Origin: Roseibacillus sp.
GTDB taxonomy: Bacteria; Verrucomicrobiota; Verrucomicrobiia; Verrucomicrobiales; Akkermansiaceae
Assembly (NCBI GenBank): GCA_965242925.1
Contig: CBDEUM010000014.1
Location: forward strand, 160,001 to 224,000
Length of the DNA: 64,000 nt
Direction: 5' to 3'
The notes beneath the pieces were generated by a model, which was not told the DNA's origin, did no database searches, and was given only the letters and a program-made list of their open reading frames with translations. Shown one piece after another: positions 31,217 through 54,805 of the stretch; the first letter of the stretch is position 1; every line of letters starts with the position of its first letter. Both the position numbers and the translations under genes were made by a program.

Positions 31217-31222
31217 CCCCTG

Positions 31223-32635: not shown

Positions 32636-32747
32636 GAATTGATCTGGCTAGGGGAGGCATCCCACCATGCTTCCCCCGGCGTGGCAACTCATCACGATCC
32701 GCAGCAGCTGCGGCGTATCTCCCCGGACATGGAGCCTGTCCAACCGG

Positions 32748-34238: not shown

Positions 34239-34392
34239 CGTATGGGAGATGGTCGACAGTATTGCCGCGGAAGCGATCAGGAACTCGCTGTTTCTCCTCC
34301 CCTTCCATGCCGTCACTTCCCACAAGGGGGTTTTAAGCCTTGAAGCTACCAAATAACTCCCCTAAACCCCGCCCCCGAATTCATGCCAAACC

Positions 34393-35901
34393 ATGTCTGA
34401 CACTTCCTCCGATATCGGACTCGTAGGCCTTGCGGTCATGGGTCAAAACCTCGCCCTGAACATAGCTGACCACGGCTTCAGGATTTCCGTTTACAACCGC
34501 ACCACTTCCAAGACCGACAAGTTTGTGGCCGCCAATCCGGACACTCCCGGCGGGGTGGTGGGCGCAACGACCCTTGAGGAGTTCGTGCAGTCCATCAAGC
34601 GTCCACGCAAGATCATCATCCTGGTCCAGGCCGGCGGCCCCACCGACTCGGTAATCGACGGACTGACCGAACTGCTCGACCCCGACGACATCATAATCGA
34701 CGGAGGAAACGCACTCTGGACCGACACCATCCGCCGGGAAAAGGATCTCAATGAAAAGGGCTTCCGGTTTGTTGGTTCCGGGGTCTCGGGCGGAGAGGAA
34801 GGTGCGCGCTTCGGCCCGGCCCTCATGCCCGGCGGGAAGGAGAGTGCCTGGCAGGAACTCAAACCCATCTGGGAAGCGATTGCAGCCAAGGTCGACGAAG
34901 AAACCGGCAAGCCCCTGGAAGGCGCCGAAGCGGGAAAACCCATCGAGGGTGGTGTCCCCTGCGCGACATACATCGGCGAAAATGGTGCGGGCCACTATGT
35001 CAAGATGGTCCACAACGGCATCGAGTACGGCGACATGCAGGTGATCTGCGAGGCCTACAATCTGATGGGGAATCTCCTCGGCATAACTCCCGGGGAAATG
35101 AGCGCGGTCTTCGGGGACTGGAACCAGGGCGTCCTGGATTCATTCCTCATCGAGATTACGGCCGACATTCTCGGTCAGAAAGATCCCGAAACCGGTCAAC
35201 CCTTCGTCGATATCGTGCTCGACACCGCCGGCCAGAAGGGAACCGGCAAGTGGACCTCCATCAACGCCCTCGACATGGGCATCGCCGCCCCCTGCATCGC
35301 GGAGGCTGTCTTTGCCCGCTGTATCAGTGCCCTCAAGGAAGAACGGGTTGCCGCTTCCCAGGTGATCACCTCCAACCTCGAGACTTTCGAGGGCGATCGG
35401 ACAGAGTTCGTGCAGGCCATTCACGATGCGCTCTACTGTTCCAAGATCTGCTCCTACGCCCAGGGCTTTCAATTGATGCGTGAAGCACAGAACGAGTATG
35501 GCTGGCAGCTGGATTTCGGCCAGATCTCCATGATCTGGCGCGGTGGATGTATCATTCGCGCCCGCTTCCTCCAGAAGATCTTCGAGGCCTACCAGGCCAA
35601 CCCCGAAATTGCCAATCTCCTCCTCGATCCCTACTTCAAGAGCGAAATCGACCGCTGCCAGGCCAACTGGCGCAAGGTGGTGGCCACCGCGGCCCTGCAC
35701 GGCATCCCCATTCCCTGCTTCAGTTCGGCGCTCTCCTACTACGACAGCTACCGCAGCGCGCGCCTCCCGGCCAATCTCCTGCAGGGACAGCGCGACTTCT
35801 TCGGAGCCCATACCTACGAGCGGGTCGACAAGGAGCGGGGTCACACCTTCCACATCGACTGGCCCGCCCCCGACCGGCCGCAGATCCAGATCCAACCGTA
35901 A
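34393..35901 (+). CDS. gnd: 6-phosphogluconate dehydrogenase, decarboxylating (NADP+)
   Basis: [67 protein letters not shown]. Confidence 0.98.
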
Positions 35902-35906
35902 CCGGC

Positions 35907-37310
35907 CTACTTCCCGCCCTTCGTTCCGATCGCGATCAGTTTGAACCGCGTACGAAAGAAGAGCATCCCCCCGGCCAGAGCCGGTGAGGCCAGGCAGGTA
36001 TCGTCCAGCTCATTCTCAGCTACCACCGAGAATTCATCACCCGCCTTCACCACGAAGACCTTCCCGGTTTCTCCTGCAAAGAAGAGGTGCCTGCCATCGG
36101 AAACAGGTGAGGCGCTGAATCCTCCCCCACCCTGCCCGATCCGCTCGCGGTAGTGGATCTCGCCGGAGACCGCATCGAAGCAGGTCAGGACACCCCCCCC
36201 ATCGCAACTGTAGAGGTTCTTCCCCACCACGATGGGCGTGGCCATGTAGGCCCCCTTGCGCCCATGAACCCAGGGGATGTGCTCGCTGGTATCGTCAACC
36301 TTCCGGAGCGTAATCTCACCCCGGGCGCTCAACCTGACTGCGCGCATGGGGCTGTGCCTGCCGTGCGCATTGCTCAGGAAAACGTTCCCGTGGGCAGTGA
36401 CCGGAGTAGGCACCGGGATGTCACCACCTCCCTGGAGCTTCCAGATCTCTTCGCCGCTCTCGAAATCGTAAGCCCCGGTGTGATGCCAGCCATTAACGAG
36501 AATCTGAGTCTTCCCCTCGTGCTCCACGATGGTGGGCGTCCCCCAGGTCGGGACATCTTTCCGCTCTCTCTTCCAGAGTTCCTTGCCGTCCTCAAGCCGG
36601 TAGACCGCGAGAAACGATCCCTCCTGCACATCGCAAAGAACCACGACCTTGCCGTCGTGAATGACCGGTGAACTCCCAAATCCCCACTGGGCGGTCTTTA
36701 CCCGGAACCAGCCCGCATCCATCGGCCCAAGATCCTTCCGCCAGCGCAACTCTCCCTCCATGTCAAAACAGAAGAGGCCCTCTGATCCGAAAATGGCTAC
36801 CAGGTTCTTCCCATCCGTGGTGGGTGTTGAATTACAATGGGTGGCCTTGGTGTGGCGCTTGACCTTTGGTTTCCCCTCGAACCCCACCTTGTTGAAGAGA
36901 ACCGCTCCCGTCGCTTTGTCGATGGCGAGCAACCGCCATTGCTGCACGCCATTATCGCTGGCGGATCCGACATCACCTCTGACCTTCACATCCAGTTCCT
37001 GCACCCCCCCGGTGACCGCGGTGGCCAGATAGACCCGATCGCCCCAGACAATGGGGGAAGCATGCCCAAGGCCCTTGATCCCGGTCTGCCAACGCACATT
37101 TTCCTGTTTTCCCACGTGCCAGCGGGTGGGCAGTCCGGCTCCTGCCAGGAGTCCACTCGCACGGTGACCCCGGAACTGGGACCACTGTCCCGCCGGGGAC
37201 AATCCCGGGGCGGGTAGAGCAGCCCTGGCGGTCTCTTCAGCTCCCTCAGGCCCAGCTGCAGTCGAGCTGATCATTACTCCGGCGAGGAGGTGGGGGAAGA
37301 ATCGTCGCAT
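35907..37310 (-). CDS. Secreted PQQ-like (BamB/PQQ_2) beta-propeller protein
   Basis: WSQFRG, GHASPIVWGDRVY, WGFGSSPV, WGTP, PVPTP, FSASPV. Confidence 0.87.
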   Translation of the reverse strand: MRRFFPHLLAGVMISSTAAGPEGAEETARAALPAPGLSPAGQWSQFRGHRASGLLAGAGLPTRWHVGKQENVRWQTGIKGLGHASPIVWGDRVYLATAVTGGVQELDVKVRGDVGSASDNGVQQWRLLAIDKATGAVLFNKVGFEGKPKVKRHTKATHCNSTPTTDGKNLVAIFGSEGLFCFDMEGELRWRKDLGPMDAGWFRVKTAQWGFGSSPVIHDGKVVVLCDVQEGSFLAVYRLEDGKELWKRERKDVPTWGTPTIVEHEGKTQILVNGWHHTGAYDFESGEEIWKLQGGGDIPVPTPVTAHGNVFLSNAHGRHSPMRAVRLSARGEITLRKVDDTSEHIPWVHGRKGAYMATPIVVGKNLYSCDGGGVLTCFDAVSGEIHYRERIGQGGGGFSASPVSDGRHLFFAGETGKVFVVKAGDEFSVVAENELDDTCLASPALAGGMLFFRTRFKLIAIGTKGGK

Positions 37311-41230: not shown

Positions 41231-42370
41231 ATGGCAAAAAAAACAACCAAGAAGAAGAATACGGCAAAACGTTCCAGTGATGTAGCAGCCGCGGAGAAAT
41301 TGGCGGCAACTGCAAAAAAATCGATCATCAAACCCGATCAGGATGGTGCAATCGACGACGTAGCCGCAGTCAAGAAACTCAATGATGCCCGCGACGCGAT
41401 CGTGGCCGAATTGCGCAAGAGCATCGTGGGGATGGACCAAGTCATCGACGAAGTTCTCATTGCCATCTTTTCCCGCGGACACGGGCTTCTCGAAGGGGTT
41501 CCCGGACTGGCAAAGACCCTTCTGGTCAGCTCCATCGCCAAAACGCTTTCCCTCTCCTTCAAGCGGATCCAGTTCACCCCGGACCTGATGCCTTCTGACA
41601 TCACGGGCAGTGAACTCCTCCAGGACGACCCGGAGACCCGGGAGCGCAAGTTCATGTTCACCAAGGGACCGATCTTCTCCAACCTCGTCCTCGCGGACGA
41701 AATCAACCGGACACCCCCCAAGACCCAGGCAGCCCTTCTTGAGGCCATGCAGGAAAAAATGGTGTCTGCTGGCGGTGATGACTACGTTCTCGATGCCCCA
41801 TTCTTCGTACTGGCCACCCAGAACCCCCTTGAGCAGGAAGGAACCTATGCTCTTCCGGAAGCCCAGCTTGACCGGTTCATGTTCAAGATCCATGTGAGCT
41901 ATCCATCCCAGCAGGAGGAAATCGACATCATGCGCAGCGTAACCGGCAGCGGTGGTGGCTCCCCCCAGCAAGTGATTGGCAAGGAGGACATCCTTGCCCT
42001 GCAGGATCTCGTCACCCGGGTTCCCGTCGCGGACCACATCTTCCAGTATGTTGCCGCACTCGTCCGGGCCACCCGGCCCGCCGAGGACAACGCTCCCGGA
42101 TTCGTCAAGGACTTCGTCTCCTGGGGTTGTGGCCCAAGGGCCTGCCTGAACCTGATCACCGGTGCCAAGGCCCGGGCTATCCTGCGCGGGCGCTTCGGCG
42201 CGTCTCTTGAAGACGTTCAGGCCCTCGCCGGCCCCGTTATGCGCCACCGCATGGGACTCAACTTCGCGGCTCAGGCCGAGGGTGTTGATGCCGATCACGT
42301 CATCGGTCGTCTCCTTGAGGAGATCCCCAGCGACAAGGAACTCTACGAGAAGACAGCGGCCTCAGCCTGA
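41231..42370 (+). CDS. moxR: MoxR-family AAA+ ATPase
   Basis: Walker A GVPGLAKT, RIQFTPDLMPSD, Walker B LADEINRTPPKTQAALLEAM, ATQNPLEQEGTY.LPEAQLDRF. Confidence 0.96.
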   Translation: MAKKTTKKKNTAKRSSDVAAAEKLAATAKKSIIKPDQDGAIDDVAAVKKLNDARDAIVAELRKSIVGMDQVIDEVLIAIFSRGHGLLEGVPGLAKTLLVSSIAKTLSLSFKRIQFTPDLMPSDITGSELLQDDPETRERKFMFTKGPIFSNLVLADEINRTPPKTQAALLEAMQEKMVSAGGDDYVLDAPFFVLATQNPLEQEGTYALPEAQLDRFMFKIHVSYPSQQEEIDIMRSVTGSGGGSPQQVIGKEDILALQDLVTRVPVADHIFQYVAALVRATRPAEDNAPGFVKDFVSWGCGPRACLNLITGAKARAILRGRFGASLEDVQALAGPVMRHRMGLNFAAQAEGVDADHVIGRLLEEIPSDKELYEKTAASA

Positions 42371-42559: not shown

Positions 42560-43513
42560 ATGCCTGAAGCGACCACTCCATCCAGCGAGCCCTCCCCGGA
42601 GGTCTCCAACAAGCCACGCGGCCCCAAGTATCTCGATCCGGAAACCCTGTCCCAGATTGGCTCCCTCGAGGTCGTGGCGCGCCGGGTTGTGGAAGGGCTG
42701 AGAATCGGCCAGCACAAGAGCCCCAGCCGGGGCATCAGCTCGGAATTCACCGCATACCGGCAGTATTCCCAGGGCGATGAGACACGCAACATCGACTGGA
42801 AAGCCTACGCCCGCTGTGACCGGTATTACATCAAACTCTTCGAGGCGGAGACCAATTTCATCTCCAACATGCTCCTCGATGCGAGTCAGTCGATGACCTA
42901 CCAGTCCGGCAGGATCTCGAAGATCGAATACGCCAAATACCTGGCGGCCTGCCTGTCCTATCTCGTCATCGACCAGGGAGACTCTGCCGGGATCGGCATC
43001 TTCGACGGGAAACTGCAGAACTACATTGCCCCCAAGAGTCACATGGGGGTCCTCCATGACATCTCTGCAGAACTGGAGAAGGTCAATCCCGTCCCGCGCA
43101 CCAACGTGGGCGCGGTCCTCCATGACTTCGCCCACCGCATGACCCGACGGGGCTTCGTGATGCTTTTTTCCGACCTCTTCGATAACACCGAGGAGTTCAT
43201 CGAAGGACTCAACCATCTCCGTTACGGGGGACATAACGTCATCCTGTGGCACATCATGGACCCCTACGAGATCGAGTTCCCACTCAACGGCATGTGGAAA
43301 TTCATGGGGCTGGAGGGCGAAGGCGAAGTCATTACCCAGCCCGGAAGGGTCCGGTCCAACTACCTTGAGGAACTCGAAAAATTCGTCACCGACATCAAGA
43401 AGGCCTGCAACAAGGTCGGCGTCGAACACGTGCTGGTAAACACCAAGACCCCCATCGAGCAGACCATCAGCAACTATCTCCTCCAGCGCTCCGCGCTGGC
43501 CAAGGCTAAATAA
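42560..43513 (+). CDS. DUF58 (VWA-like) MoxR-associated protein
   Basis: G.HKSP.RG.S.EF..YRQY..GDE.R.IDWK.YAR; DASQSM MIDAS; follows moxR. Confidence 0.93.
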   Translation: MPEATTPSSEPSPEVSNKPRGPKYLDPETLSQIGSLEVVARRVVEGLRIGQHKSPSRGISSEFTAYRQYSQGDETRNIDWKAYARCDRYYIKLFEAETNFISNMLLDASQSMTYQSGRISKIEYAKYLAACLSYLVIDQGDSAGIGIFDGKLQNYIAPKSHMGVLHDISAELEKVNPVPRTNVGAVLHDFAHRMTRRGFVMLFSDLFDNTEEFIEGLNHLRYGGHNVILWHIMDPYEIEFPLNGMWKFMGLEGEGEVITQPGRVRSNYLEELEKFVTDIKKACNKVGVEHVLVNTKTPIEQTISNYLLQRSALAKAK

Positions 43514-43538: not shown

Positions 43539-45419
43539 ATGACGACGTTATCCCTCTCCACAGTGACCCGGACCCTCGCTTGCCTCACGGCGGCGGCGTT
43601 TCCGGTCCTGGCCCGGGGAGAAGCCGTCGTGATCAGCTCCGAGAATCACCCAGCTCTCCAGCGGGCCCTGAGCGAGACTCCCCAAGCCGACAAGGATACC
43701 AACGGGCAACTCTCCCTTGAGGAGTATGTGGAACTCCTGCCTCAGCAGCGCCCCAATGACCCCGAGAATCCCAAGGCCCCGCTCCTCCCGGTGCGCCCCA
43801 ATGGGGACCTTGTGATCCACGAGTTCGAGGACAACAATCTCGGACAGAACCCCAAGTGGAGTCCGGTCCATGCTACGCCTGTCAAGGACAGCACACTGGG
43901 CAATCTCGGCGGAAACTGGCAGAGGGAGGGAGATGCCTTCAACCGGGATCTCCAGTCCGGGACCAAGATGATGAGGCGCCGCGTCGGCCCGTTCGAAGGA
44001 AAGCTCTTCCTCACCACCATCGGCAACAGCCAACGAGCCGTTGGAAGCCTCCGTTCTCCCATCTTCCTGATCGAGCAGGACTACATTCTCATCCGGATGA
44101 GCGGAGGCGGCCACCCGGGGCGGGTCTGCCTCAATCTGCACACCAGCCAGGGCATTGTTCGCAGTGCCACCGGCCACAACGACGACTATTTTGAAAACGT
44201 CGCGATGGATGTCCGGGAGTTCCGCGGGCAATTCGTACGCCTTGAACTGCTCGATCAGCACCGGGGGATCTGGGGCCATCTCAACGTGGACGAGATTCTC
44301 ATGACCTCCAAACACGAAGAGGCCCGGGTGGTTAACAAGCGTCCCCCGCCACCCATTCCCACCGGCGGACTGATCGTCTCCGGGGGCGGCCGCGACCAGG
44401 GAGTGCTCAAACTGGAGAACGGTCAACTCTCCTGCGAGGACAAGCCCCTCGTCGGCGAAGCCTTCCTCGCGATCAACCCCATGCCGGAAAACGCCCCCCG
44501 GTTACCCGGCTCCGTTCACCTTCTGAATGGCGAGGTCTGGAACGCCGAGGTTCTCACCGTCGAAGGCGCAGGCCGGAAAAAAATCCTCAACATCCGAAGC
44601 CAGATTTTCGGCGCTCAGAAGATTCCGCTTTCCACCCTCTCCAGCATGGAGTTCGTGGCCGGGGCCCCCGGCGACCCGCGGGAACCGGGCACCTTCTACC
44701 GCAAGGATGGCGAGCCCCTTCCCGGCAGCCTGATCTGGGTCCGAGCCAAGGATATCGCCATCCGCTCCCCCCTCGGCGTGATTCCGGTCCCCCGTGCAGC
44801 GGCCCTGCGCTTCGTTCTGGCAAGGCCGCAGCCACCGGCCCAGAGATCCGGTGACGAGATCGGCCTGACAGACGGCAGCCTGCTCTTCGGCACCACCAGC
44901 TTCGAAGGCAACCAGCTTCTCATCCAGCATGAAACCCTTGGAGAGCTGAAGCTGGCATGGAACGCCGTCCACTACCTGCGACGCAACCTTCCCGGACTCA
45001 CCTGGCTCGATAACGTCCCGCGAACCGTCATGGAAGCCATTGGCCCGGCTCTCCCCCCCCCCGCCCCCAGGCTCTCCACCAAGGTCAATGAGAGCCACGC
45101 GCGCTCCCTGCGCATCATGCCCCATACCGTTCTCCGGTTCGCTCTTCCCGCCCCGCACGGTCCAGCCCTCTTCCGGGGCCAGCTCCACCCCGTTCCCGGC
45201 AACCGGGCCCGGTTGGAAGTCACCGTCCTCGATGGAGACTCCCCCGTCTGGTCAAGCAAGGTCGAAACCGCCAGCGGTCCCATCCCCCTCGCCCTCAGCC
45301 TCCCCGGAGGCGAGGAACTGACCATCAAGGTCGCATTTGACGGCCCCCTGACCTTCCCCTGCGGGGTGGACCTGCGGGACGCACACGTGATCCGGACAAC
45401 CAATCTCAAACCCGAATAA
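43539..45419 (+). CDS. Secreted protein with an EF-hand, a GH32-associated-type beta-sandwich and a C-terminal NPCBM-like domain
   Basis: Signal peptide; DKDTNGQLSLEE EF-hand; GSLRSP.F.I...GG.H...VRSATG...LLD...WGHLNVD; C-terminal W.S...P..L.L.GGEEL.I.V...LRDAHV. Confidence 0.6.
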   Translation: MTTLSLSTVTRTLACLTAAAFPVLARGEAVVISSENHPALQRALSETPQADKDTNGQLSLEEYVELLPQQRPNDPENPKAPLLPVRPNGDLVIHEFEDNNLGQNPKWSPVHATPVKDSTLGNLGGNWQREGDAFNRDLQSGTKMMRRRVGPFEGKLFLTTIGNSQRAVGSLRSPIFLIEQDYILIRMSGGGHPGRVCLNLHTSQGIVRSATGHNDDYFENVAMDVREFRGQFVRLELLDQHRGIWGHLNVDEILMTSKHEEARVVNKRPPPPIPTGGLIVSGGGRDQGVLKLENGQLSCEDKPLVGEAFLAINPMPENAPRLPGSVHLLNGEVWNAEVLTVEGAGRKKILNIRSQIFGAQKIPLSTLSSMEFVAGAPGDPREPGTFYRKDGEPLPGSLIWVRAKDIAIRSPLGVIPVPRAAALRFVLARPQPPAQRSGDEIGLTDGSLLFGTTSFEGNQLLIQHETLGELKLAWNAVHYLRRNLPGLTWLDNVPRTVMEAIGPALPPPAPRLSTKVNESHARSLRIMPHTVLRFALPAPHGPALFRGQLHPVPGNRARLEVTVLDGDSPVWSSKVETASGPIPLALSLPGGEELTIKVAFDGPLTFPCGVDLRDAHVIRTTNLKPE

Positions 45420-45431
45420 GGACTCAACCTC

Positions 45432-47642
45432 ATGGGAACACTCAATTCACTCGGACTGTGGTCAATCATCGGCGCACTGGGCATCGCAGTGCCAATCATC
45501 ATCCACCTCCTCTACCGGAAGCACCGCCGCCAAACGGACTGGGCTGCCATGGAGCTGTTGCGCAGGGCCCTCGTAACCCGTTCCGGCCAGGTCAAGATCG
45601 AGGACCTGATCATTCTGCTCCTGCGCTGCCTCGCCCTTGCCCTCCTGGCCCTTGCCCTGCTGCGCGTTACCCTGGACTCCAACTCCGTTCTCGCCGACGA
45701 AAAGATCGGAATGGTGGTGGCCATCGATGCCTCCTACAGCATGAACCACGGCGAGTTTTCCCGCTTCGACAGCGCAATCGACAAGGCCCGTGAAATCTTT
45801 GGACAAACTGCCAAGGAGGGGGACCCCGTGAGCCTCGTGCTCATGAGCAGCCGCCCCGAGGTTCTCCTGCGCAGTGCCCGGTATGATCCCGCCACGGTGA
45901 CAGAGATCCTCGATGGACTCGATTCAGCGGGACCGAATTCCCTGAACCTGGAGACCAACATCGAGCTCCTCGATGAGCTGGTAAAAGAGCTGAAGACTCC
46001 CGGGAAAGAGTGCTTCCTGATCACTGATTCGCAGGAAATGGACTGGGCTGAACTCCCCCAGCGGACCCGGAATACCCTTGAGCAGCTGCAGGAAGAGAAA
46101 AATGTCAACATCTTCATCGTTCCCGCCAGCAATGAGGGAGAAGACAACCTCGCCATCGAAAGCCTCAACTACACCTGGGGCTCGCTGCGGAAATCAGGTG
46201 AAGCCCGCTTCACCGCCCTCGTCCGTAATACCGGACGCAGTTCCGAGGAAGGAGCAACCCTTGAGTTCTCGGTCGACGGGAACCTGACCAAGCGGGTGGC
46301 GGTCGGCAGCCTCGCTGCCGGTGAGTCCCGCCCTCTTGAGTTCACCACCCAGTTTGACAAGGCCGGTGATGTCACCCTGCAAGCGGAACTGAGCAAGGAC
46401 GACCTTGCCGACGATAACGTCCGCCATGCTGTTGCCCGTATCCGCCCCGGCATCCGGGTCCTCTTCCTTGAGGGAGATATCGAGAACACCGCAGGAAATC
46501 GCGGTGGCAGCTACTACGCGAAGGCGGCCCTGCGCCCCCAGGACAGCGACAGTGAGGAAGGAGTGGTTGTCAACGAAATCGATCCGGCCGATTTCGGCCT
46601 TGAGAAACTCAATGCCTTCGATGTCGTGATCATGAACAACGTGCTCTCGGTCTCCTCCGACACGGCCAAGCGCCTCAAGCGTTTCGTCAACGAAGGCGGG
46701 GGGCTCATTGTCTTCGCTGGCGACCGGGTGGAGGCCTCGGAATACAATCAGAGTCTCGGCGATGGCGAGGGTGGGGAAGGAATTCTTCCTGCCCAGCTTG
46801 GCGCAATTGCGACCAGCGAGAACGAAGAAGGCTGGGCCCTCGAAGCCTCCAAGTCCGGCCACCTTCTCGCCCGCCTCACCGCCCGCTACCCGGAAAAGCT
46901 TCTTGATGCCATCCGTATCACGAGACAGATCGAGGCCACCCCGGCAGAAAACAGCGAAACTCTCATCACTTCCCAGTCAGGAAACCCCGTTCTCCTGAGC
47001 CGTTCCACCGGATCCGGCACCGTTCTCCTTTTCACCACTACCGCCAACCAGCGCTGGAACAACCTCCCACGCGAGCCACTCTATGCCATCCTGCTCCAGC
47101 AGGCCGTCACCATGCTCACCAGTGATCCCGGTCGCCTGCAGCTCACGGTGGGCACAGATGCTTCTCTCCCCTTGGCCAAGAGAGAAGCGGGAGAATTTGT
47201 CGCCCTCCGCACCCCGGGTGCTGAGAATGCTGAAGACGTCAGGGTCACCCAGGACGGCGACCAGCTGGTGGCTGAAGTCTCCCTGACCGAGCACGGCATC
47301 TACGAGATCGAAGCCGAGGACGATAAACCCGGAATGGTGGTTGCGGCCAACGTCAATGCCCGTGAATCCAACGTCCGGGTGGTCGAAGGTGCCGCGCTTG
47401 CCAATAGCCTGGACGACACCGGGGTCAAGGTTCTCAACCGGGCCGGCTCCATGGCTGATGCCATCCAGGCTGAACGCCGGGGAAGCGAGTTGTCCAGCCG
47501 TCTGCTCCTCGCCGCCATAATCGCCTTCATCCTGCAGAGCATCCTCGCCCGGCGCTTCACCAACCGCATCAACCGGGAGGATACAACGGACCTTTCCACC
47601 ATCCTGCAAATGAGCCAGGTCGCCGCCGCCCGCCGCAGCTAA
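45432..47642 (+). CDS. BatA-like N-terminus + VWA + CARDB + GATase-like membrane protein
   Basis: AVPIIIHLL.RK....DWAAME.L and LLLRCLAL (BatA double-TM); IDASYSM MIDAS; LITDSQ; DDLADDN; GGGLIVFAGD; C-terminal TM. Confidence 0.88.
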   Translation: MGTLNSLGLWSIIGALGIAVPIIIHLLYRKHRRQTDWAAMELLRRALVTRSGQVKIEDLIILLLRCLALALLALALLRVTLDSNSVLADEKIGMVVAIDASYSMNHGEFSRFDSAIDKAREIFGQTAKEGDPVSLVLMSSRPEVLLRSARYDPATVTEILDGLDSAGPNSLNLETNIELLDELVKELKTPGKECFLITDSQEMDWAELPQRTRNTLEQLQEEKNVNIFIVPASNEGEDNLAIESLNYTWGSLRKSGEARFTALVRNTGRSSEEGATLEFSVDGNLTKRVAVGSLAAGESRPLEFTTQFDKAGDVTLQAELSKDDLADDNVRHAVARIRPGIRVLFLEGDIENTAGNRGGSYYAKAALRPQDSDSEEGVVVNEIDPADFGLEKLNAFDVVIMNNVLSVSSDTAKRLKRFVNEGGGLIVFAGDRVEASEYNQSLGDGEGGEGILPAQLGAIATSENEEGWALEASKSGHLLARLTARYPEKLLDAIRITRQIEATPAENSETLITSQSGNPVLLSRSTGSGTVLLFTTTANQRWNNLPREPLYAILLQQAVTMLTSDPGRLQLTVGTDASLPLAKREAGEFVALRTPGAENAEDVRVTQDGDQLVAEVSLTEHGIYEIEAEDDKPGMVVAANVNARESNVRVVEGAALANSLDDTGVKVLNRAGSMADAIQAERRGSELSSRLLLAAIIAFILQSILARRFTNRINREDTTDLSTILQMSQVAAARRS

Positions 47643-47683: not shown

Positions 47684-50078
47684 ATGCTCAACAAACTGCT
47701 GGGACTCGACCCTTCACAGGAAATCGATAAGTGGGACCTCGCCTTCCGGGGCGGCTCGCTCATTGGCCTTCTCCTCATCGTAGCAGCCATCTCTTTCGCG
47801 ATCTTTCTCTATCGTAGCGAGCAGCTGGTCACCAGCAGGCGACGCATAACCATGATTGCCCTGCAGGGGGCCGCCCTCCTCACCCTGATCCTGATCCTGA
47901 TGCAGCCCTATGCCAGGATCAAGATGAGCAAGGAATCCAAGAGCTCCATGATCGTCATGCTCGACACCTCACGCAGCATGTCCATCGAGGATCCCCGCAC
48001 CGCTGCTGAAGATATAGAGGAAGCCGCCAAGGTGCTTGGCAAGAGAGCCCTGGATGCTCCCGCCCTGGGCTCCGATGATGCAAGGAATCTGCAACAGGAA
48101 CTCGGCTCCGCCCGCCGGATCGACCTCGCCCGGGCCGCCCTTGAGCATGAGGACATGAAACTCCTCGACCAGCTTGAGGAGACTTACGACCTTCGGTTCT
48201 TCACCTTCGACTCCCAGCTGCGTGGAGAGGACCCACGGACCACCCCGGGAAGTGCCTCCGGGGATGATCCGGAAAGCGCCTCCCTGCCCGTGGCAGAGGG
48301 CACCTCTTCCCAGATCGGCAACGCTATTGAAGATGCCGTGGATCGTTTCTCGGGACAGCCGCTTGCCGGTGCCGTGGTCATCAGTGACTTCGCCTGGGTC
48401 GAGGGCAAGGATCCCGTCGACGTGGCCCGCAGGCTGAAGGAACGCCGCGTTCCCCTCTACACTGTTCCGGTCGGACTTCCTGCCCCACCCGACATTCATG
48501 TCCGTGGGGTGATCGCCCCGGAGGTGGTATTCAAGGGAGACCGCGTCCCCCTGCGGGTCAAGATCGAGTCCCGTGGCTTCGCCGGCAAGGCCGTCCAGCT
48601 CTACTTCCGGGTTAACGAAGACGAGAAGGAGAGCAAGCAGGTCACCCTCAAGGACGGAGTCCAGTTCGAGGAATTCATGTTCATCCCGGAGGAGGAATCG
48701 GGCACCTTGAAGCTCAGCTTCGAGATCAACCTGCAGGAAGGCGAGATTTCGGAGGTCAACAACTCCACCAGCCACAACGTCCGCATCCTCGATGAGAAAA
48801 TCAAGGTTCTCTATATCGAGGGCATGCCCCGGTGGGAATTCCGCTACCTGCGCTGGGTCCTCCTGCGCGATCCCCGCCTCCAGGTTCAGTTCCTCATGAC
48901 CCAGGGAGATCCAGCCCTCGCTGGCTCCTCTCCCCTGCACATAGGCCGCTTCCCGGAGGACCCCAAGGTCGCCCTGCAATACGACCTGATCATTCTCGGT
49001 GATGTCGCGTCGTCCTATTTCAATGCCGCCCAGACCCAGTTGATCGAGAAGCTCGTCCGCGAACGCGGGGGCTCGCTCCTGATGCTGGCTGGCCCCATGG
49101 CCGCTCCCTCCACCTATCGTGATAATCCCATCGGCGATCTCCTCCCCATCAATATCGGCACCGGAGGCACCTTCAATCCCGGCATCAACGTCTCCCCGGA
49201 GGTCACCGAGGACGGACAGAAGAGCCTCGCCACTTCCCTTTCCCTCGCGCCGGACGTAAGCGCGCGTATCTGGAGAAACGTCAAGTTCATGTCCCTCCCC
49301 CAGATCGCAGGAGCGAAATCAGGGGCCACCACTCTCCTGCGCCTGCCCAAGGCCAACGAGATTGATGCCGACTATCCGCTGGTAGCCTGGCACCGCTACG
49401 GGACCGGCAAGAGCCTCTTCGTCGCAACCGAGGACCTCTGGCGCATGCGTCTTGAAGTGGGCGACCGCTTCCATGCCCGCTTCTGGGGCCAGACCATCCA
49501 GTTCCTCACCCTCTCCCGTCTTCTGGGGGCCAACAAGCAGATCAGCATCGAGACCGATCGCAGCAGTTACAGCGCAGGAGACCAGATCCGCGTGTTCGCC
49601 AACGTCCTCACCGAATCATTTGAACCGGTGGAGGGTGAAAGTTACGAAGTGGTCCTCGAGGAGAAGGACAACCCGGACTCCTCCACCACCATCGAGATGA
49701 CCGCGGTGGAGAGTACTCCGGGCCTCTATACGGGTTCCTACCTCGCCAGCAAGGATGGCAACTTCGAGGTAAGTACCCAGCCTGAGGACGCCGATATTTC
49801 CAACACCGCCGAGTTCTCCGTCTCAACCGTCGACATCGAGGACCGGGAAACCTCCATGCAGACCGATGTCGCCAGGCAGGCCGCCGAGATTTCCGGAGGA
49901 CGTCAGTTGAGCCTGGCGGGACTCGGGGAATTTCCTGCCAGCCTTCCTCCGCGAGGAAACTACCGATAGTATCATCACGATCGAGAGGGAACTTTGGGAT
50001 ACGCCCCTGTGGTTTATCCTCATCGTCGCCTTCGCGGGCACCGAGTGGTTCCTGCGGCGCAAGGACAACCTCGTATAA
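47684..50078 (+). CDS. VWA + GATase1-like membrane protein, with a +1 frameshift near 49950
   Basis: N-terminal TMs; LDTSRSM MIDAS; VLYIEGMPRWEFRYL; GGSLLMLAG; FWGQTIQFL. ORF stops at 49969, but the family-typical TM tail ELWDTPLWF...EWFLRRKDNLV* is in the +1 frame and ends at 50078. Confidence 0.8.
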
Positions 50079-50113
50079 CAGAGAATCGAACCATTCACCA
50101 ACTGACCAGACCC

Positions 50114-51916
50114 ATGGCCGAAGGACACGACAGCAGTATCGAAGACAGGCTGCGACAAGCCCACCGGGAGGAGCGAAAGTGGTATAATATCCGTGGAGCT
50201 TCCCGGCTCATTCTATGGCTCATCGCCCTCCTCGCCGTCGACTTCCTCATCGACTGGGGCCTCTTCGCCAAGACCCAGATGTCCGGTGCGACCGGCCTGT
50301 CTCTCCTCCTTGTGAACATAGGAATCCTGGGATGGGTCGGCTGGCGCGAATGGTGGCGCCACCTGAGAAGTTACGACGCGCTCACCACCGCCCTCGAGGT
50401 GGAGAAACGTCATCCCGGCCTCAGCTCCCTCCTGGTCTCCTACATGCAGCTCGAGGACGGCCCTGCCGCGGACCAGGGTAATGTTTCGCAGGCCCTGATC
50501 AACGCCATGCGTGACCAGGCCATCGAGCTGAGCCGTCCGATCAACTTCCGGGACATCGTGGACCTCGGCCAGCTCCGCAGGATCGGTGGCGTGGCTGTTG
50601 TCATCTTCCTGGCCTTTGCCGTTCTCGGAATCTTCAACAAGGAACATGCCGCAACCCTGCTTAATCGTCTGGCCGGGGGAGACGCGGAATACCCCACCCA
50701 GACGATCATCACCAGTACCAGCCAGGATTCCGTCATCCGGATCGGGGACGAACCCGTCATTACCGCAACAGTCGACCAGAATGGCGAAGTCCCGGAAGAG
50801 GGGAAGCTCTTCATGAAGGAAAAGGGCTCGGACGACAATTGGAAGGACGTTCCCATGCGACCGGGCAGAAAGTCCGCCAACGAGTTCTCCTTCCAGCTCA
50901 AGCCGGTCGACCGGGACACGCTCTTCTACATCAAAATTGGTGATGACCGCAGTGACGAATACACCATTGATGTGATCACTTCCCCGCGAATCACGAAGTC
51001 CGATCTCGTCCTCCAGTATGCCGAATACATGAACCGGGAAGACGGCAGGAGCGATCAGCTGAACCTCGAGGTCCCGGAAGGTACTACCCTGAAATGGACC
51101 GTCTCCTGTGACACCCCGGTGAGTTCATGGGAAGTCTTGGTCCCCTCCGACTGGGGAGCTCCTGAGGCGGAGGAGGAAGCTGCTCCCGCCCCGGAATCCG
51201 AACCCAAACCCGAGTCCGGACAGACTGCTGACTCCGTCGAGGGCGAAGAGGCTCCCAGATTCCGCTCCATCCCCGCCGATCTGGACGAGAACGGAACGAC
51301 CGCCACCTTTGAGATTCCCATCGAAAAGGCCCTCAGGTATTCCTTCCGATGGACCGAAAAGGCAAACGGCTTCAGTTACGAGGACGTCCAGTATGGCGTC
51401 AAGGTCACCAGCGATGGACTTCCGGATGTTGACCTCCTCCAGCCCCGGGAGGTCGGATATGCCACCCAGACGAAGGTGGTGAAGATGCAGGCCAAGGGCA
51501 CCGACGATATCGGCCTCGACAAGGCCTGGCTGGTGTATTCTCTCAACGGGGCGGACGAAACCAAGGTCGAGATTTTCAATTTCGAGGGGGATATCAATAA
51601 AACCTTCGATTACAGCTGGAAACTGGCGGAAAGCATCAAGGAACTGAAGCCCACTGATCGCATATCCTTCGCGATTGAGGTGGCTGACCGGCATCCCGAC
51701 CGGGAAATCCACCTGCGACGCACGGCCCCGCGACAATTGACTATCGTTACTCCCGAAGCTTATCTAGAATGGTACCGAGCAGAGTACGGGTCGCAGATCG
51801 AAGAACTGAAGCGTTCCCGTAACCAGGAGCTGGCGGCCCAGAAGGCTGTCACCCAACTCCAGACCGAAGAAGGCATCGAACCCGAAAAAGAAGAAGATGA
51901 TGAAAGCGAAGAATAG
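50114..51916 (+). CDS. DUF4175-like membrane protein (N-terminal TMs, Ig-like domains)
   Basis: Three TM helices; A..VE..HP.L...LVS..QL motif; D..P.V.L..P...TDDIGL; ends by overlapping the next start codon. Confidence 0.7.
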   Translation: MAEGHDSSIEDRLRQAHREERKWYNIRGASRLILWLIALLAVDFLIDWGLFAKTQMSGATGLSLLLVNIGILGWVGWREWWRHLRSYDALTTALEVEKRHPGLSSLLVSYMQLEDGPAADQGNVSQALINAMRDQAIELSRPINFRDIVDLGQLRRIGGVAVVIFLAFAVLGIFNKEHAATLLNRLAGGDAEYPTQTIITSTSQDSVIRIGDEPVITATVDQNGEVPEEGKLFMKEKGSDDNWKDVPMRPGRKSANEFSFQLKPVDRDTLFYIKIGDDRSDEYTIDVITSPRITKSDLVLQYAEYMNREDGRSDQLNLEVPEGTTLKWTVSCDTPVSSWEVLVPSDWGAPEAEEEAAPAPESEPKPESGQTADSVEGEEAPRFRSIPADLDENGTTATFEIPIEKALRYSFRWTEKANGFSYEDVQYGVKVTSDGLPDVDLLQPREVGYATQTKVVKMQAKGTDDIGLDKAWLVYSLNGADETKVEIFNFEGDINKTFDYSWKLAESIKELKPTDRISFAIEVADRHPDREIHLRRTAPRQLTIVTPEAYLEWYRAEYGSQIEELKRSRNQELAAQKAVTQLQTEEGIEPEKEEDDESEE

Positions 51917-53747
51917 CCTATTACCCTCCCTGGCCATCGCCGCCACGGGCCTTCTGGCCTTTCCGGGCCTTGCCCAGGAGGAAGAGGACCGGGCCGACAG
52001 CATCGTAGGGACCAAGCAGCGCCTTGGGTCCGAGGTCAATCGGCAGAACGGCGTGGGCCGTCGTATGAATTCCGTTGTCCGGCGCCTCAGCTTTCTCCTC
52101 GAGGACCTGCAATCCAATGGACTCGCCGAGGAAGGCGGAGCAAACACCCTTAATGAAACCCGCAACTCCCTGGGGGGACTTCGCACCAAGAAGGTGGTGA
52201 CTGCCCGCGATGAGCTCGCCAATGCCCGTGAGAAGTTCCGCCCCGGTAAACCGGAGAACTCCCACCCTCATCTCGCGGAAGCGGGCAAGACCATTGAGGA
52301 AATCGTGGAAGAGCTCGGCAAGATCATCTCCGGCGCCAACACTGTCCTGGTCGACGATCTCCTCGTGAAGCAGGTCCGCGAGATCATCAAGACCGAGGAG
52401 TTCATGCAGCGCCAGACCAAGCAATGGGGGATCGAGGCCTACAGGAACAAGGATGCCGCCAAGGTTGACCAGGCTCGCCTGGGCCGCGCCCAGCAGGCGG
52501 TCATTGATCGCTACGGACAGTTTTTCCAGACTCTCGTGAAGGCCCGTAAGGAGGCCGTAGACGAAGAGACCCTGAGCCGGTTTGGAAGGGCTGAGCTCTC
52601 CCTCCTTGAGAGCAAACCCGTCCCGCACATGGCCCGTGCCATCGAGCAGATCGCCCAGACCAAGGCTGCCGACGCGGTGACGGACCAGGAGAAGGCTCTC
52701 GAGGCCCTCCGCGAGGCGGAGAAGATCCTGGCCGCGGAGTCCAGCGGAATGTCGGACCTCGTGGCGGATATCGCCCAGATCCTTGCCGACCAGAAGGATC
52801 TGCAACAGGATACCGTGCAGGCTGAGGGTGAGGTCTTCAAATCCGAGCAAAGCCAGCTGGAAGCCCGTCAGCTTGAGATCGGCATCCAGATCGAGGAAGT
52901 GGCCGAAGAACACCTTACGGAAGAAGCGACTCCCGATGCCGAGGATCCCCTGCGCGACGCCCTGACCGAGGCTGGCGAACACGTGGCTGTAGCGGCCGCC
53001 GAGATCAATACCGGCAACAAGGACGGCGGAATCAAGGCCCAGAGCGATGTCATCGCGGCCCTGGAACAGGCTCTCGCCGCTGCCGAGGCCGGGGCCGAGG
53101 CCGAACTCGGATCCGGTGATGGCCTTTCCGACGATGGAGGAGCCGGCGACGATGGATTTGGCGACGATGGATTTGGCGACGATGGATTCGGCGACGATGG
53201 ATTCGGCGACGATGGATTCGGCGATGATGGATTTGGGGCCGACGGAGCTGGGGCCGGAGCAGATGCTGGTGCCGGAGCTGGTGCCGGAGCTGGTGCTGGT
53301 GCTGGTGCCGGTGCTGGTGCTGGAGCTGGTGCTGGAGCTGGAGCCGGAGCTGGTGCTGGAGCTGGAGCTGGAGCTGGAGCCGGAGCTGGAGCTGGAGCCG
53401 GAGCCGGAGCTGGAGCCGGAGCTGGAGCTGGAGCTGGTGCTGGAGCCGGAGCTGGAGCTGGTGCTGGTGCTGGTGCTGGAGCTGGGGCCGGACAGGGCAG
53501 CGGACAGGGACAGGGACAGGGACAGGGTGGAGGGCAGGGGAAAGGTAATCCCCTCGACCTGCAGGAAAGTTCAGCAGCCGGAACCTCCTCAACCGTAGCC
53601 CAGGGAGACGCGGTGGCCCGCACCCGGCAATCCAGCAATTCTCTCACCCGGCGCAGACGCTCTGCTGCCATCCAGAATTATGTGCAACCTCTCCCGGCAG
53701 AGTTTCGGAAGATGGTTGCGGAGTATTATGAAGCCCTTGAGGAATGA
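51897..53747 (+). CDS. Exported coiled-coil protein with (GDDGF)6, (AG)38 and GQ low-complexity tracts and a DUF4175-type C-terminal helix
   Basis: Signal peptide MKAKNSLL...GLA; helical Q/E/A-rich body; repeats; C-terminal LPAEFRKMVAEYYEAL. Confidence 0.75.
   Translation: MMKAKNSLLPSLAIAATGLLAFPGLAQEEEDRADSIVGTKQRLGSEVNRQNGVGRRMNSVVRRLSFLLEDLQSNGLAEEGGANTLNETRNSLGGLRTKKVVTARDELANAREKFRPGKPENSHPHLAEAGKTIEEIVEELGKIISGANTVLVDDLLVKQVREIIKTEEFMQRQTKQWGIEAYRNKDAAKVDQARLGRAQQAVIDRYGQFFQTLVKARKEAVDEETLSRFGRAELSLLESKPVPHMARAIEQIAQTKAADAVTDQEKALEALREAEKILAAESSGMSDLVADIAQILADQKDLQQDTVQAEGEVFKSEQSQLEARQLEIGIQIEEVAEEHLTEEATPDAEDPLRDALTEAGEHVAVAAAEINTGNKDGGIKAQSDVIAALEQALAAAEAGAEAELGSGDGLSDDGGAGDDGFGDDGFGDDGFGDDGFGDDGFGDDGFGADGAGAGADAGAGAGAGAGAGAGAGAGAGAGAGAGAGAGAGAGAGAGAGAGAGAGAGAGAGAGAGAGAGAGAGAGAGAGAGAGAGQGSGQGQGQGQGGGQGKGNPLDLQESSAAGTSSTVAQGDAVARTRQSSNSLTRRRRSAAIQNYVQPLPAEFRKMVAEYYEALEE
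53145..53234 (+). repeat. 15-bp tandem repeat x6 encoding (GDDGF)6
   Basis: ggcgaYgatggattY units at 53145, 53160, 53175, 53190, 53205 and 53220. Confidence 0.95.
53265..53492 (+). repeat. Degenerate 6-bp tandem repeat encoding (Ala-Gly)38
   Basis: 228 bp of alternating GCT/GCC and GGA/GGT/GGG codons, in frame with 51897..53747. Confidence 0.95.
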
Positions 53748-54805
53748 ACACCCGACCACTTCGCACAACCACCGTGGCTGCCCTGACCGCAGCCTCCCTG
53801 ATCACCACCACTCTTCCCCTTGCCCGCGTCCAGGCACAGGATGAGGCCGCGCCTACCCAGACCGTTGGGGTAGCCCGGCTCACCCCTGAGGCCGAAGCCG
53901 CCATCACGAAGGGGCTGGCCTATCTCGCCAAGGACGGGACCCAGAACCCCGATGGCAGCTGGGGAGGATCCGGCAACCCGGTGGCAGAAACTTCCGTGGG
54001 ATTGATGGCCTTCATGCTGAAGGGCTATGTGCCGGGCCGTGGCGAGTATGGACGCCTGATGGACAAGGCGATCTCCTACCTCATCAACAAGGGCCGGGAG
54101 CAACGGGGCTTCATGGGGACTCCAAACAACCATGCCGGCATGTATGAACACGGACTTGCCGTTCTCGCCCTCTCCGAGGCCTGGGGTCAAAGCAAGAATC
54201 CCCGCCTGAAAACCGCCCTGCGCCGTGCCGTCGACATCATCCTGCGGGCCCAGAATGCGGAAGGAGGATGGCGCTATAACCCGGAACCCCGGGACGCCGA
54301 CCTCTCCATGACCGTCATGCACGTGGTCGCCCTGAATTCCGCCCGGGAAGCTGGCATCTCCGTCCCGGATGCCACCATCGAGAAAGCCACCAAATACGTC
54401 CTCTCCTGTCAGGATGAGGACAGCGGGGGCTTTCGCTACCAGCCCGGCGGCGGGGAACCCGGATTTGCCAGAACCGCAGCCGGGGTCATGTCCCTCATCA
54501 TGTGCGGGCAGCTCCGGCACAAGGCCACCCAGCGTGGGCTCGCTTTCCTCAAGGCCTATCCCGACCGTAAATTCGACAAGAACTATCCCCGTTTCCACTA
54601 CTCCCACTACTACGCGGTCCAGTCGATGTACCAGGCCGGCGAATCCGACTTCCAGGCCTGGTACCCGAAGATTGCGGCTACCATCGTCTCCAAACAGCAG
54701 CAGGACGGCAGCTGGGGCGGAGCTCACGGCACGGTTTACGGAACCGGATTTTCCATCCTCATTCTGGGAGTGCCTTACCGCTACCTTCCCATCTACCAGC
54801 GCTAA
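53744..54805 (+). CDS. Exported prenyltransferase/squalene-oxidase-repeat (alpha/alpha toroid) protein
   Basis: Signal peptide; QW-type repeats QNPDGSW, QNAEGGWRY, QDEDSGGFRY, QQQDGSW; MYEHG, DADLSMT, YLPIYQR end; ATGA overlap with the upstream stop. Confidence 0.85.
   Translation: MNTRPLRTTTVAALTAASLITTTLPLARVQAQDEAAPTQTVGVARLTPEAEAAITKGLAYLAKDGTQNPDGSWGGSGNPVAETSVGLMAFMLKGYVPGRGEYGRLMDKAISYLINKGREQRGFMGTPNNHAGMYEHGLAVLALSEAWGQSKNPRLKTALRRAVDIILRAQNAEGGWRYNPEPRDADLSMTVMHVVALNSAREAGISVPDATIEKATKYVLSCQDEDSGGFRYQPGGGEPGFARTAAGVMSLIMCGQLRHKATQRGLAFLKAYPDRKFDKNYPRFHYSHYYAVQSMYQAGESDFQAWYPKIAATIVSKQQQDGSWGGAHGTVYGTGFSILILGVPYRYLPIYQR

Follow-up and report, generated by a model that had tools for sequence, protein, structure and literature searches.

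A long alternating Ala-Gly tract in a predicted exported protein of a Roseibacillus MoxR operon, a candidate flexible tether

We analysed a window of 64,000 nucleotides from the genome of a marine Roseibacillus sp. (GenBank assembly GCA_965242925.1, contig CBDEUM010000014.1, positions 160,001 to 224,000), in which one protein of an operon headed by a MoxR-type ATPase gene contains a long Ala-Gly repeat. An open reading frame (ORF) on the plus strand (51897..53747) encodes this protein, a predicted exported polypeptide of 616 residues that we call P0001 and that carries all of the repeats described below. It starts with a predicted Sec signal peptide (51897..51977, aa 1-27), assigned by inspection, followed by a helical-bundle body (51978..53111, aa 28-405) delimited from an AlphaFold2 model and from the rates of non-synonymous (dN) and synonymous (dS) substitution. 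An acidic-aromatic block, (GDDGF)6, is located at 53145..53234 (aa 417-446) and was found both by script and by Tandem Repeats Finder. In the translation, a short transition, GADGAGAGAD (53235..53264), connects this block to the (Ala-Gly)38 tract (53265..53492, aa 457-532), which was delimited by script. The tract is followed by a GQ/GS/GK block, QGSGQGQGQGQGGGQGKG (53493..53546, aa 533-550), and by a conserved C-terminal module of two helices (53547..53744, aa 551-616) that ends in RRRRSAAIQNYVQPLPAEFRKMVAEYYEALEE. All of these features are on the plus strand.

A script counted 76 residues of strict Ala/Gly alternation in the assembled tract. An initial annotation, made from the sequence alone, had described this alternation with six GDDGF units before it and GQ repeats after it, and its coordinates and counts proved exact. 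The tract is encoded by 28 GCT, 10 GCC, 24 GGA, 13 GGT and one GGG codons. All codon differences within it are at the third position, in line with the synonymous-only variation first described, and the codon script found no Ser or Tyr in it. The acidic block that flanks the tract contains 17 Asp in 51 residues. Tandem Repeats Finder reported a period-6 array (53244-53485, 40.3 copies, 84% matches, score 295), a period-15 array (53144-53233, 6.0 copies, 96%) and a period-6 GGACAG array (53490-53527). Together, these arrays are beyond what chance gives.

The same region contains an ORF of 267 aa with (PA)n on the minus strand (52868..53671). The wobble sites of this frame coincide with those of the plus frame, so the synonymous-only pattern alone cannot tell the strand. 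We rejected the ORF as a gene and regard it as a by-product of the repeat, because the plus frame alone runs on into conserved flanks of low dN/dS and has homologues in more than one phylum. Gene callers could nevertheless take it for a gene.

Strict AG runs of 28, 34, 50, 56, 60, 62, 66, 68 and 78 residues are present in nine complete metagenome orthologues. The run of 34 residues belongs to a tract of 53 residues that contains one Ser, and the longest run, in L042, exceeds that of P0001. Five complete genome loci carry runs of 66 (G100), 53 (L077), 61 (L078), 67 (L090) and 40 residues (L091), and the genome loci closest to P0001 are from Roseibacillus sp. The run of 76 residues in P0001 falls inside the range of these 14 other complete orthologues (28-78). 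The initial annotation had proposed an alignment of orthologues as a check on both the alternation and its length; we found that the alternation is conserved in the genus and that the assembled length is not. GDDGF copies number 5-8 in the orthologues, up to 11 G(D/E)(D/E)GF units are found in Verrucomicrobia lineages, and the block is also present in a metagenome-assembled genome (MAG) of Planctomycetia. The GADGAGAGAD transition recurs in L025, L026 and L080, and most other loci have a shorter one, such as GADG or GDDG. In a lineage with 42% identity in the body, ten GDDGF units are followed by an AG run that reaches the contig end. Two more distant homologues, L051 and L052 (36-37% identity), contain an extra acidic-aromatic insertion, DPFADDDPFADDDPF, in the helical body, a long way N-terminal to the GDDGF block, suggesting a role for Asp-Phe motifs in this clade.

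The tract, or its length, could in principle be an artefact of assembly. The region was compared with Logan contigs from four runs of four studies, with 53259-53535 masked as repeat. The contigs in all four runs match without differences up to the tract edges (to 53258 and from 53536), and no read or contig examined spans the tract, so the comparison says nothing on its length. Assemblies of congeners break in it: in three congeneric genomes the two ends of the P0001 gene are on different contigs, with the break in the repeat region, inside the AG run in G020 and G053 and at the GQ block after a (GEGA)n run in G043. Among 18 metagenome loci that were translated, nine are complete and nine run off the contig, eight of the latter inside the GDDGF or AG repeats. 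Two sequences, L084 (a G053 contig) and L086, continue from a short AG stretch into unrelated, stop-rich sequence; these are probably chimeric joins made at the repeat. An artefact is nevertheless highly improbable. All 41-mers of 53101-53560 occur once only, which allows the tract to be assembled, and it is located in a contig of 646 kb without N, in an assembly that resolves arrays up to 1.1 kb. In addition, the 14 other complete orthologues, one with a run longer than that of P0001, come from separate assemblies. Many of the MAG and metagenome contigs examined end in the repeat region, and genes of the P0001 type are therefore often annotated as truncated fragments.

We defined the core tract as the region after the last Asp to the first GQG and compared it in 12 sequences: P0001, the nine complete metagenome orthologues, L026 and L031. 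The set excludes the genome loci and seven contigs that stop short of the tract or soon after entering it. Strict Ala/Gly alternation is kept in 693 of the 694 core codons; the exception is one Ser, and no Ala-Gly swap was found. The 12 tracts use the complete set of Ala and Gly codons, four of each. We observed 14 of the 16 synonymous GCN-GGN unit types and one non-synonymous type. Since 12 of the 18 single-base changes per unit are non-synonymous, the binomial P is about 6e-6, a rough value, since each unit type is counted as an event and mutation bias is left out of account. The bodies of the nine orthologues differ from P0001 at 19-39 of 378 residues, with dN of 0.03-0.07 versus dS of 0.37-1.85, and the C-terminal modules differ at 2-9 of 72 residues. 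At the body rate, about 43 replacements would be expected in the tract versus the one seen (a sum over nine pairwise comparisons that are not independent). The excess of synonymous over non-synonymous unit types and the retention of the alternation in nearly every codon strongly support purifying selection on the Ala-Gly peptide. Selection on the peptide had been suggested in the initial annotation for P0001, and among the orthologues the alternation is kept while the wobble positions vary widely.

The tract also carries signs of repeat expansion and contraction. GCT accounts for 28 of the 38 Ala codons in the tract versus 10 of 69 elsewhere in the P0001 gene, and GGC for 0 of 38 Gly codons in the tract versus 13 of 30 elsewhere. 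Several orthologue tracts contain higher-order units of 12 bases. Two pairs of orthologues with bodies that are 99.9% identical have AG runs of 62 versus 28 residues (L029 and L040) and of 66 versus 68 residues (L036 and L037). The codon use of an amplified unit, the 12-base units and the length differences between these near-identical pairs indicate that slippage resizes the tract.

Slippage could also be the whole explanation, with the tract a functionless by-product in a tolerant linker that owes its purity to fast repeat turnover instead of selection. The codon use of the tract is indeed that of the amplified unit, and the linker composition across the family, described below, is arbitrary. 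The source genome contains a total of 219 tandem arrays, many of them with periods of 6, 12, 15 or 18, and it also has (GCNGGN)n arrays outside genes, as do 8 genomes from other genera. However, turnover would homogenise the wobble positions too, yet the 14 synonymous unit types coexist with a single non-synonymous one. The array matches its consensus at 84%, whereas most other arrays of short period in the genome reach 96-99%, and all of its 41-mers are unique, indicating that it is old and degenerate at silent sites only. It is also kept across lineages with saturated synonymous sites. We consider a mere by-product of slippage unlikely.

Similar arrays are found at other places. (GCNGGN)10 arrays are present in 13 of 121 genomes of the bacterial family, and none of those beyond the genus lies in a P0001 orthologue. 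A genome-wide habit of coding (AG)n was rejected, as the arrays outside the genus sit in short ORFs without P0001-like flanks. G055, the complete genome of another genus, has two nearly pure (GGTGCR)n arrays, L019/L054 (C1:509823-510101) and L012 (C1:4207127-4207492), which would encode (AG)43-46 in such short ORFs. They look like young microsatellites, unlike the wobble-degenerate P0001 tract. In the source genome (G000), long arrays of period 6, 12 or 24 with GGN-GCN-type units are located at C29:402006-402328, C30:178373-180079 and C7:12536-12623. They are open in each forward frame, without a convincing gene around them, and appear to be non-coding relatives of the DNA repeat in the P0001 tract.

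The residues that follow the GDDGF block differ between lineages. Species-representative genomes were scanned for DNA of three GDDGF units, which gave 20 loci, 18 of them of the P0001 type. These 18 are from Roseibacillus, from Verrucomicrobiaceae or Verrucomicrobiales MAGs, and from one Planctomycetia MAG. After the block, ten continue with (AG)n, five with (GAGE)n and then a long (GQ)n, and one with GE/GQ and then (GQ)n; in the last two the contig is cut inside the block. Judging from these loci, Gly at every second residue is the common feature within the GDDGF-bearing clade, and the partner residue changes by lineage.

P0001 itself matches no Pfam family at E up to 10, Ca-binding families included, and does not reach the gathering score of PF13779 (DUF4175), 27.3 bits. 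Its sole NCBIfam match is compositional (NF033849, 18.7 bits versus a cut-off of 650), and the GDDGF block has no match to the curated Ca-binding families (RTX, EF-hand and the like) in Pfam or NCBIfam. A profile of P0001 relatives found 170 proteins among 1.84 billion representatives. We stored 158 of these, and 71 of the 158 carry a C-terminal motif of the type LPxEYRxLLxxYYExL. PF13779 is matched at E up to 0.01 by 9 of 13 profile members tested and above the cut-off by 6 of 13, with scores of 100.6 bits for P0072 and 44.0 bits for P0033. In P0039 (1082 aa), a homologue of the 640-aa product encoded upstream of P0001 is fused to a P0001-like part. The 640-aa protein and the N-terminal part of P0039 are 34% identical over 586 aa (E 6e-97). 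A six-frame scan of the source genome with PF13779 matches only one locus, on contig C42, which encodes a paralogue; the P0001 family alignment aligns with the exported half of this DUF4175-positive paralogue in hhalign at 97.8% probability (E 7e-13, 255 columns). From the P0039 fusion, the members that match PF13779 and the matches of the C42 paralogue, we classify P0001 as half of a divergent DUF4175-type protein that is split in two, namely the predicted exported half. The N-terminal transmembrane part and the C-terminal helical and low-complexity part are encoded here by two overlapping genes (49994-51916 and 51897-53747), not as one polypeptide. In a protein atlas, the nearest clusters are unnamed Verrucomicrobiota and Planctomycetota proteins, and one cluster is 22% DUF4175, which we take as a lead only. 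When proteins of 338-1078 aa were searched with the last 77 residues of P0001, P0009-P0011 alone were found, and no complete close relative.

A G/P-rich low-complexity segment precedes the C-terminal module in all 71 motif-bearing members (median 55 aa, maximum 184), and the P0001 linker, with 160 aa, is the second longest of these. The compositions across the family include GK, GQ, GE, PGPPM, MPGMQ and DPNAS. P0009-P0011 contain an imperfect GA/GV/GE stretch, and among motif-bearing members the longest strict GA run outside P0001 is 7. Tandem-repeat linkers of the types ADPNASPN, MEPGEPQDM, DGKGK, PGPPMPG and MPGMQPG are found in P0059, P0029, P0105, P0022 and P0047, so repeat-driven turnover of the linker is a trait of the whole family. 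The initial annotation had held that arbitrary low-complexity linkers without GA preference in orthologues would refute its proposal. Such linkers are found across the wide family and not in the genus, where pure AG is kept.

The paralogous system (locus L073) is located on the minus strand of contig C42 at about 28919-37219, with the gene pair at 29959-34852. Its gene order is the same as at the P0001 locus: a BatA-like protein of 786/788 aa, a 573-aa transmembrane half, an exported helical half and an alpha/alpha-toroid protein. Both halves match PF13779, the 573-aa protein at DUF4175 positions 187-386, and the 640-aa and 573-aa transmembrane halves match each other in BLASTP (E 1e-13). The exported half is an ORF of about 1100 aa, with a helical part much longer than in P0001 and without a GDDGF block. 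Its linker, (GEGQGQ)10, precedes the C-terminal motif and is encoded by an 18-base array with 99% match, which indicates a young array. The initial annotation had offered, as one of two possibilities, a length-variable spacer in place of the G/Q-rich linker usual in this protein type. This proposal gained support from the (GEGQGQ)10 paralogue, from (GAGE)n and (GQ)n in sister lineages, from the G/P-rich linkers of all 71 members and from the length differences between near-identical strains. The other possibility, a fibre- or amyloid-forming segment next to an acidic, possibly Ca-binding block, was neither favoured nor refuted by the data.

The genes upstream of P0001 are on the same strand, and the MoxR operon setting given in the initial annotation was recovered. 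The first gene encodes the MoxR-type AAA+ ATPase (41231..42370; Pfam AAA_3 6.2e-60, AAA_lid_2 and bpMoxR). It is followed by genes for a DUF58 protein (42560..43513; Pfam DUF58 2.6e-39), a 626-aa protein with no Pfam or NCBIfam match (43539..45419) and a BatA-type double-transmembrane VWA protein (45432..47642; Pfam BatA, VWA_2 and CARDB; TIGR02226 1.6e-15). A 761-aa membrane protein (47684..49969) has weak MG2 and DUF7408 matches, both below curated cut-offs. The 640-aa transmembrane protein (49994..51916), the N-terminal half of the split DUF4175-type protein, is encoded by a gene whose 3' end overlaps the P0001 gene by 20 nt. Downstream of P0001, also on the plus strand, is the gene for a 353-aa exported alpha/alpha-toroid protein with prenyltransferase/squalene-cyclase-like repeats (53744..54805; Pfam SQHop_cyclase_C and Prenyltrans). 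A homologue of the 640-aa protein is directly upstream in 24 of 28 metagenome loci, and a toroid homologue is directly downstream in 14 of 28, with 93-98% identity over long matches; several of the loci without a neighbour homologue have little or no flank on that side. The toroid protein is encoded by the best conserved gene of the locus. The combination of a toroid with an MG-type domain, the weak MG2 match at 47684-49969, recalls pieces of alpha-2-macroglobulin-like proteins.

The N-terminus of P0001, MMKAKNSLLPSLAIAATGLLAFPGLA/QEEE, has on inspection the shape of a Sec signal peptide, as initially annotated, with a basic n-region, a hydrophobic core and G-L-A before QEEE. AlphaFold2 gives this region a pLDDT below 50. 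From the shape of its N-terminus, P0001 is expected to be exported. PMC5700661 places the VWA domain of BB0173, a BatA-type protein, in the periplasm, and from this we infer that P0001 and the VWA protein of the operon would occupy the same compartment, the periplasm.

A signal peptide also bears on another possibility: the tract could be a ‘slippery’ stretch of Gly and Ala that an AAA+ motor or translocase (MoxR, ClpX/FtsH or SecA) cannot hold firmly, as in EBNA1 of Epstein-Barr virus. The operon encodes a MoxR AAA+ ATPase. According to passages of PMC9531181, the EBNA1 Gly-Ala repeat impairs AAA+ unfoldases, and GAr sequences impair the ClpX-dependent degradation of some substrates. However, the signal-peptide-like N-terminus would take P0001 out of the cytoplasm, where MoxR and ClpX act, the linkers of its relatives are GQ-, GE-, GK- or Pro-rich, and nothing found here links the tract to a motor. 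A slippery element is very unlikely.

The AlphaFold2 model of P0001, built with a 36-sequence alignment, contains 11 helices over aa 28-405, mostly with pLDDT above 90, in agreement with the long helical body of the initial annotation. The following region of about 175 residues (aa 407-583) is without secondary structure and has a pLDDT of 33-45. Two C-terminal helices, at 585-596 and 601-615, have a pLDDT of 74-81; where one conserved C-terminal helix had been annotated, the model places these two, and they go with the motif found in 71 of the 158 relatives. A Foldseek search of the model against the Protein Data Bank (PDB) gave nothing at E up to 0.001, and its top rows, the helical bundles of vinculin and alpha-catenin with TM of about 0.2, reflect generic helical similarity. 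A sequence search of the PDB with the repeat region gave compositional matches alone, such as circumsporozoite protein repeats, and no meaningful relative. A complex prediction with four copies of aa 447-545 had a score of 0.00, which is evidence neither way.

At the linker position the P0001 family always has a G-rich, repeat-built, low-complexity segment, and the tract is best read as a flexible tether. We consider it somewhat probable that (Ala-Gly)38 is the core of a very flexible tether that is resized by slippage, and more so than a silk-like fibre. The tether would comprise about 145 low-complexity residues within the region that AlphaFold2 leaves unstructured, which may be disordered, and would join the exported helical-bundle body to the small two-helix C-terminal module. 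In-frame slippage of 6- and 12-base units would build and resize the tract, and purifying selection would remove amino-acid changes, so that every second residue stays Gly and its partner stays small. The product may work as a very flexible, uncharged spacer, allowing the (GDDGF)n block and the helical body to move freely in the periplasm relative to an anchoring C-terminal module. Its exact length would matter little. Binding of a metal or of a VWA site by the GDDGF units is speculation.

Several points weigh against a flexible tether. If the tract were a plain spacer, Ser, Thr, Glu or Gln should be tolerated, as they are in the linkers of other lineages. One Ser and no swap in 694 codons within the genus is a stronger constraint than expected of a tether, and agrees with the alternation having a structural role of its own. 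For a silk-like sequence, a low AlphaFold2 confidence does not show disorder. Near-identical strains were seen to differ in length in metagenome assemblies, where repeats may be collapsed, and as to the assembled length of P0001, no Logan contig in the four runs from four studies spans the tract. The literature mentioning DUF4175 contained nothing usable for this protein type, and we know of no member of the P0001 family with a known function.

Such a constraint is at the centre of another explanation, a silk-like block, in which the Ala/Gly alternation folds, or zips between molecules, as an antiparallel beta-sheet, one face of which is Ala and the other Gly. The block would be self-assembling or mechanically resistant, and its acidic (GDDGF)n and GQ flanks would keep it soluble until needed. 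The GAGAGS repeats of Bombyx fibroin form beta-sheet crystallites. In P0001, 76 residues alternate strictly, and in the genus the alternation itself is kept by selection, with the wobble positions free. The tract is also conserved more strictly than the folded body, and the arrangement of GDDGF units followed by AG is kept in the lineage with 42% body identity. The Gly-Ala dipeptide repeat of C9orf72 forms amyloids according to the title of a work in the reference list of PMC9531181. However, (GAGE)n, (GQ)n and (GEGQGQ)n, which take the same position in sister lineages or in the paralogue, would not form silk-type sheets, nor would the Pro-, Lys- or Met-rich linkers of the wider family. The assembled length varies from 28 to 78 residues, and AlphaFold2 predicts no strand, although this is weak evidence. 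A silk-like block is a possibility that we hold as doubtful. We give still less credence to a bolder form of it, in which marine Verrucomicrobia make a natural bacterial silk-like block. The (Ala-Gly)n run, held pure by selection beside acidic (GDDGF)n, would then switch between a soluble state and a beta-sheet, zipping copies of the envelope protein together as a scaffold in the periplasm or at the cell surface, or serving as a load-bearing elastic element, and hexanucleotide slippage would tune its length by strain.

Comparison with known systems starts with the DUF4175 proteins of MoxR/DUF58/BatA operons. Like P0001, they are found in an operon context with MoxR, DUF58 and a BatA/TIGR02226 VWA protein, and they have a helical region, then Gly-rich low complexity, then a C-terminal motif of the LPxEYRxLLxxYYExL type. 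Their alphaproteobacterial equivalent is TIGR02302 (‘aProt_lowcomp’). Unlike them, P0001 falls outside the Pfam model even at E 10, its transmembrane half is a separate upstream gene, and its linker is (GDDGF)n followed by pure (AG)n instead of a G/Q-rich segment. The low-complexity linker of DUF4175-type proteins is known; a selected, length-variable, pure dipeptide polymer at this position appears to be new. Our searches of open-access papers and preprints yielded no description of a poly(Ala-Gly) tract in bacteria, nor of the P0001 protein type. The variants at this one position, (AG)14-39, (GAGE)n, (GQ)n and (GEGQGQ)10, form a natural series from which the composition and length needs of a Gly-X linker may be learned. 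The conserved acidic-aromatic (GDDGF)n block and the split DUF4175-type pair are also now marked in MoxR/BatA operons.

The heavy chain of Bombyx mori fibroin, with (GAGAGS)n, resembles the P0001 tract in its long uninterrupted run with Gly at every second residue and Ala as the partner. Unlike fibroin, the P0001 tract has no Ser/Tyr hexapeptide periodicity and no homology to it, and is a single block of 28-78 residues in a putative bacterial envelope protein of 600 aa. The Gly-Ala repeat of EBNA1 is similarly long, limited to Gly and Ala and variable in length. EBNA1 repeats are irregular, with GGA and GA mixed, and cytosolic or nuclear, whereas the P0001 tract alternates strictly and is part of a predicted exported protein. 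C9orf72 poly-GA is the same strict dipeptide polymer as the P0001 tract. It is the product of aberrant translation of an expanded non-coding repeat; the P0001 tract, in contrast, is in-frame in a conserved gene, is under purifying selection and is next to a strongly acidic block. Silk and the disease-linked C9orf72 poly-GA are the most familiar sources of long strict dipeptide polymers. P0001, a putative bacterial envelope protein, carries the same polymer in-frame and conserved, and selection keeps it pure.

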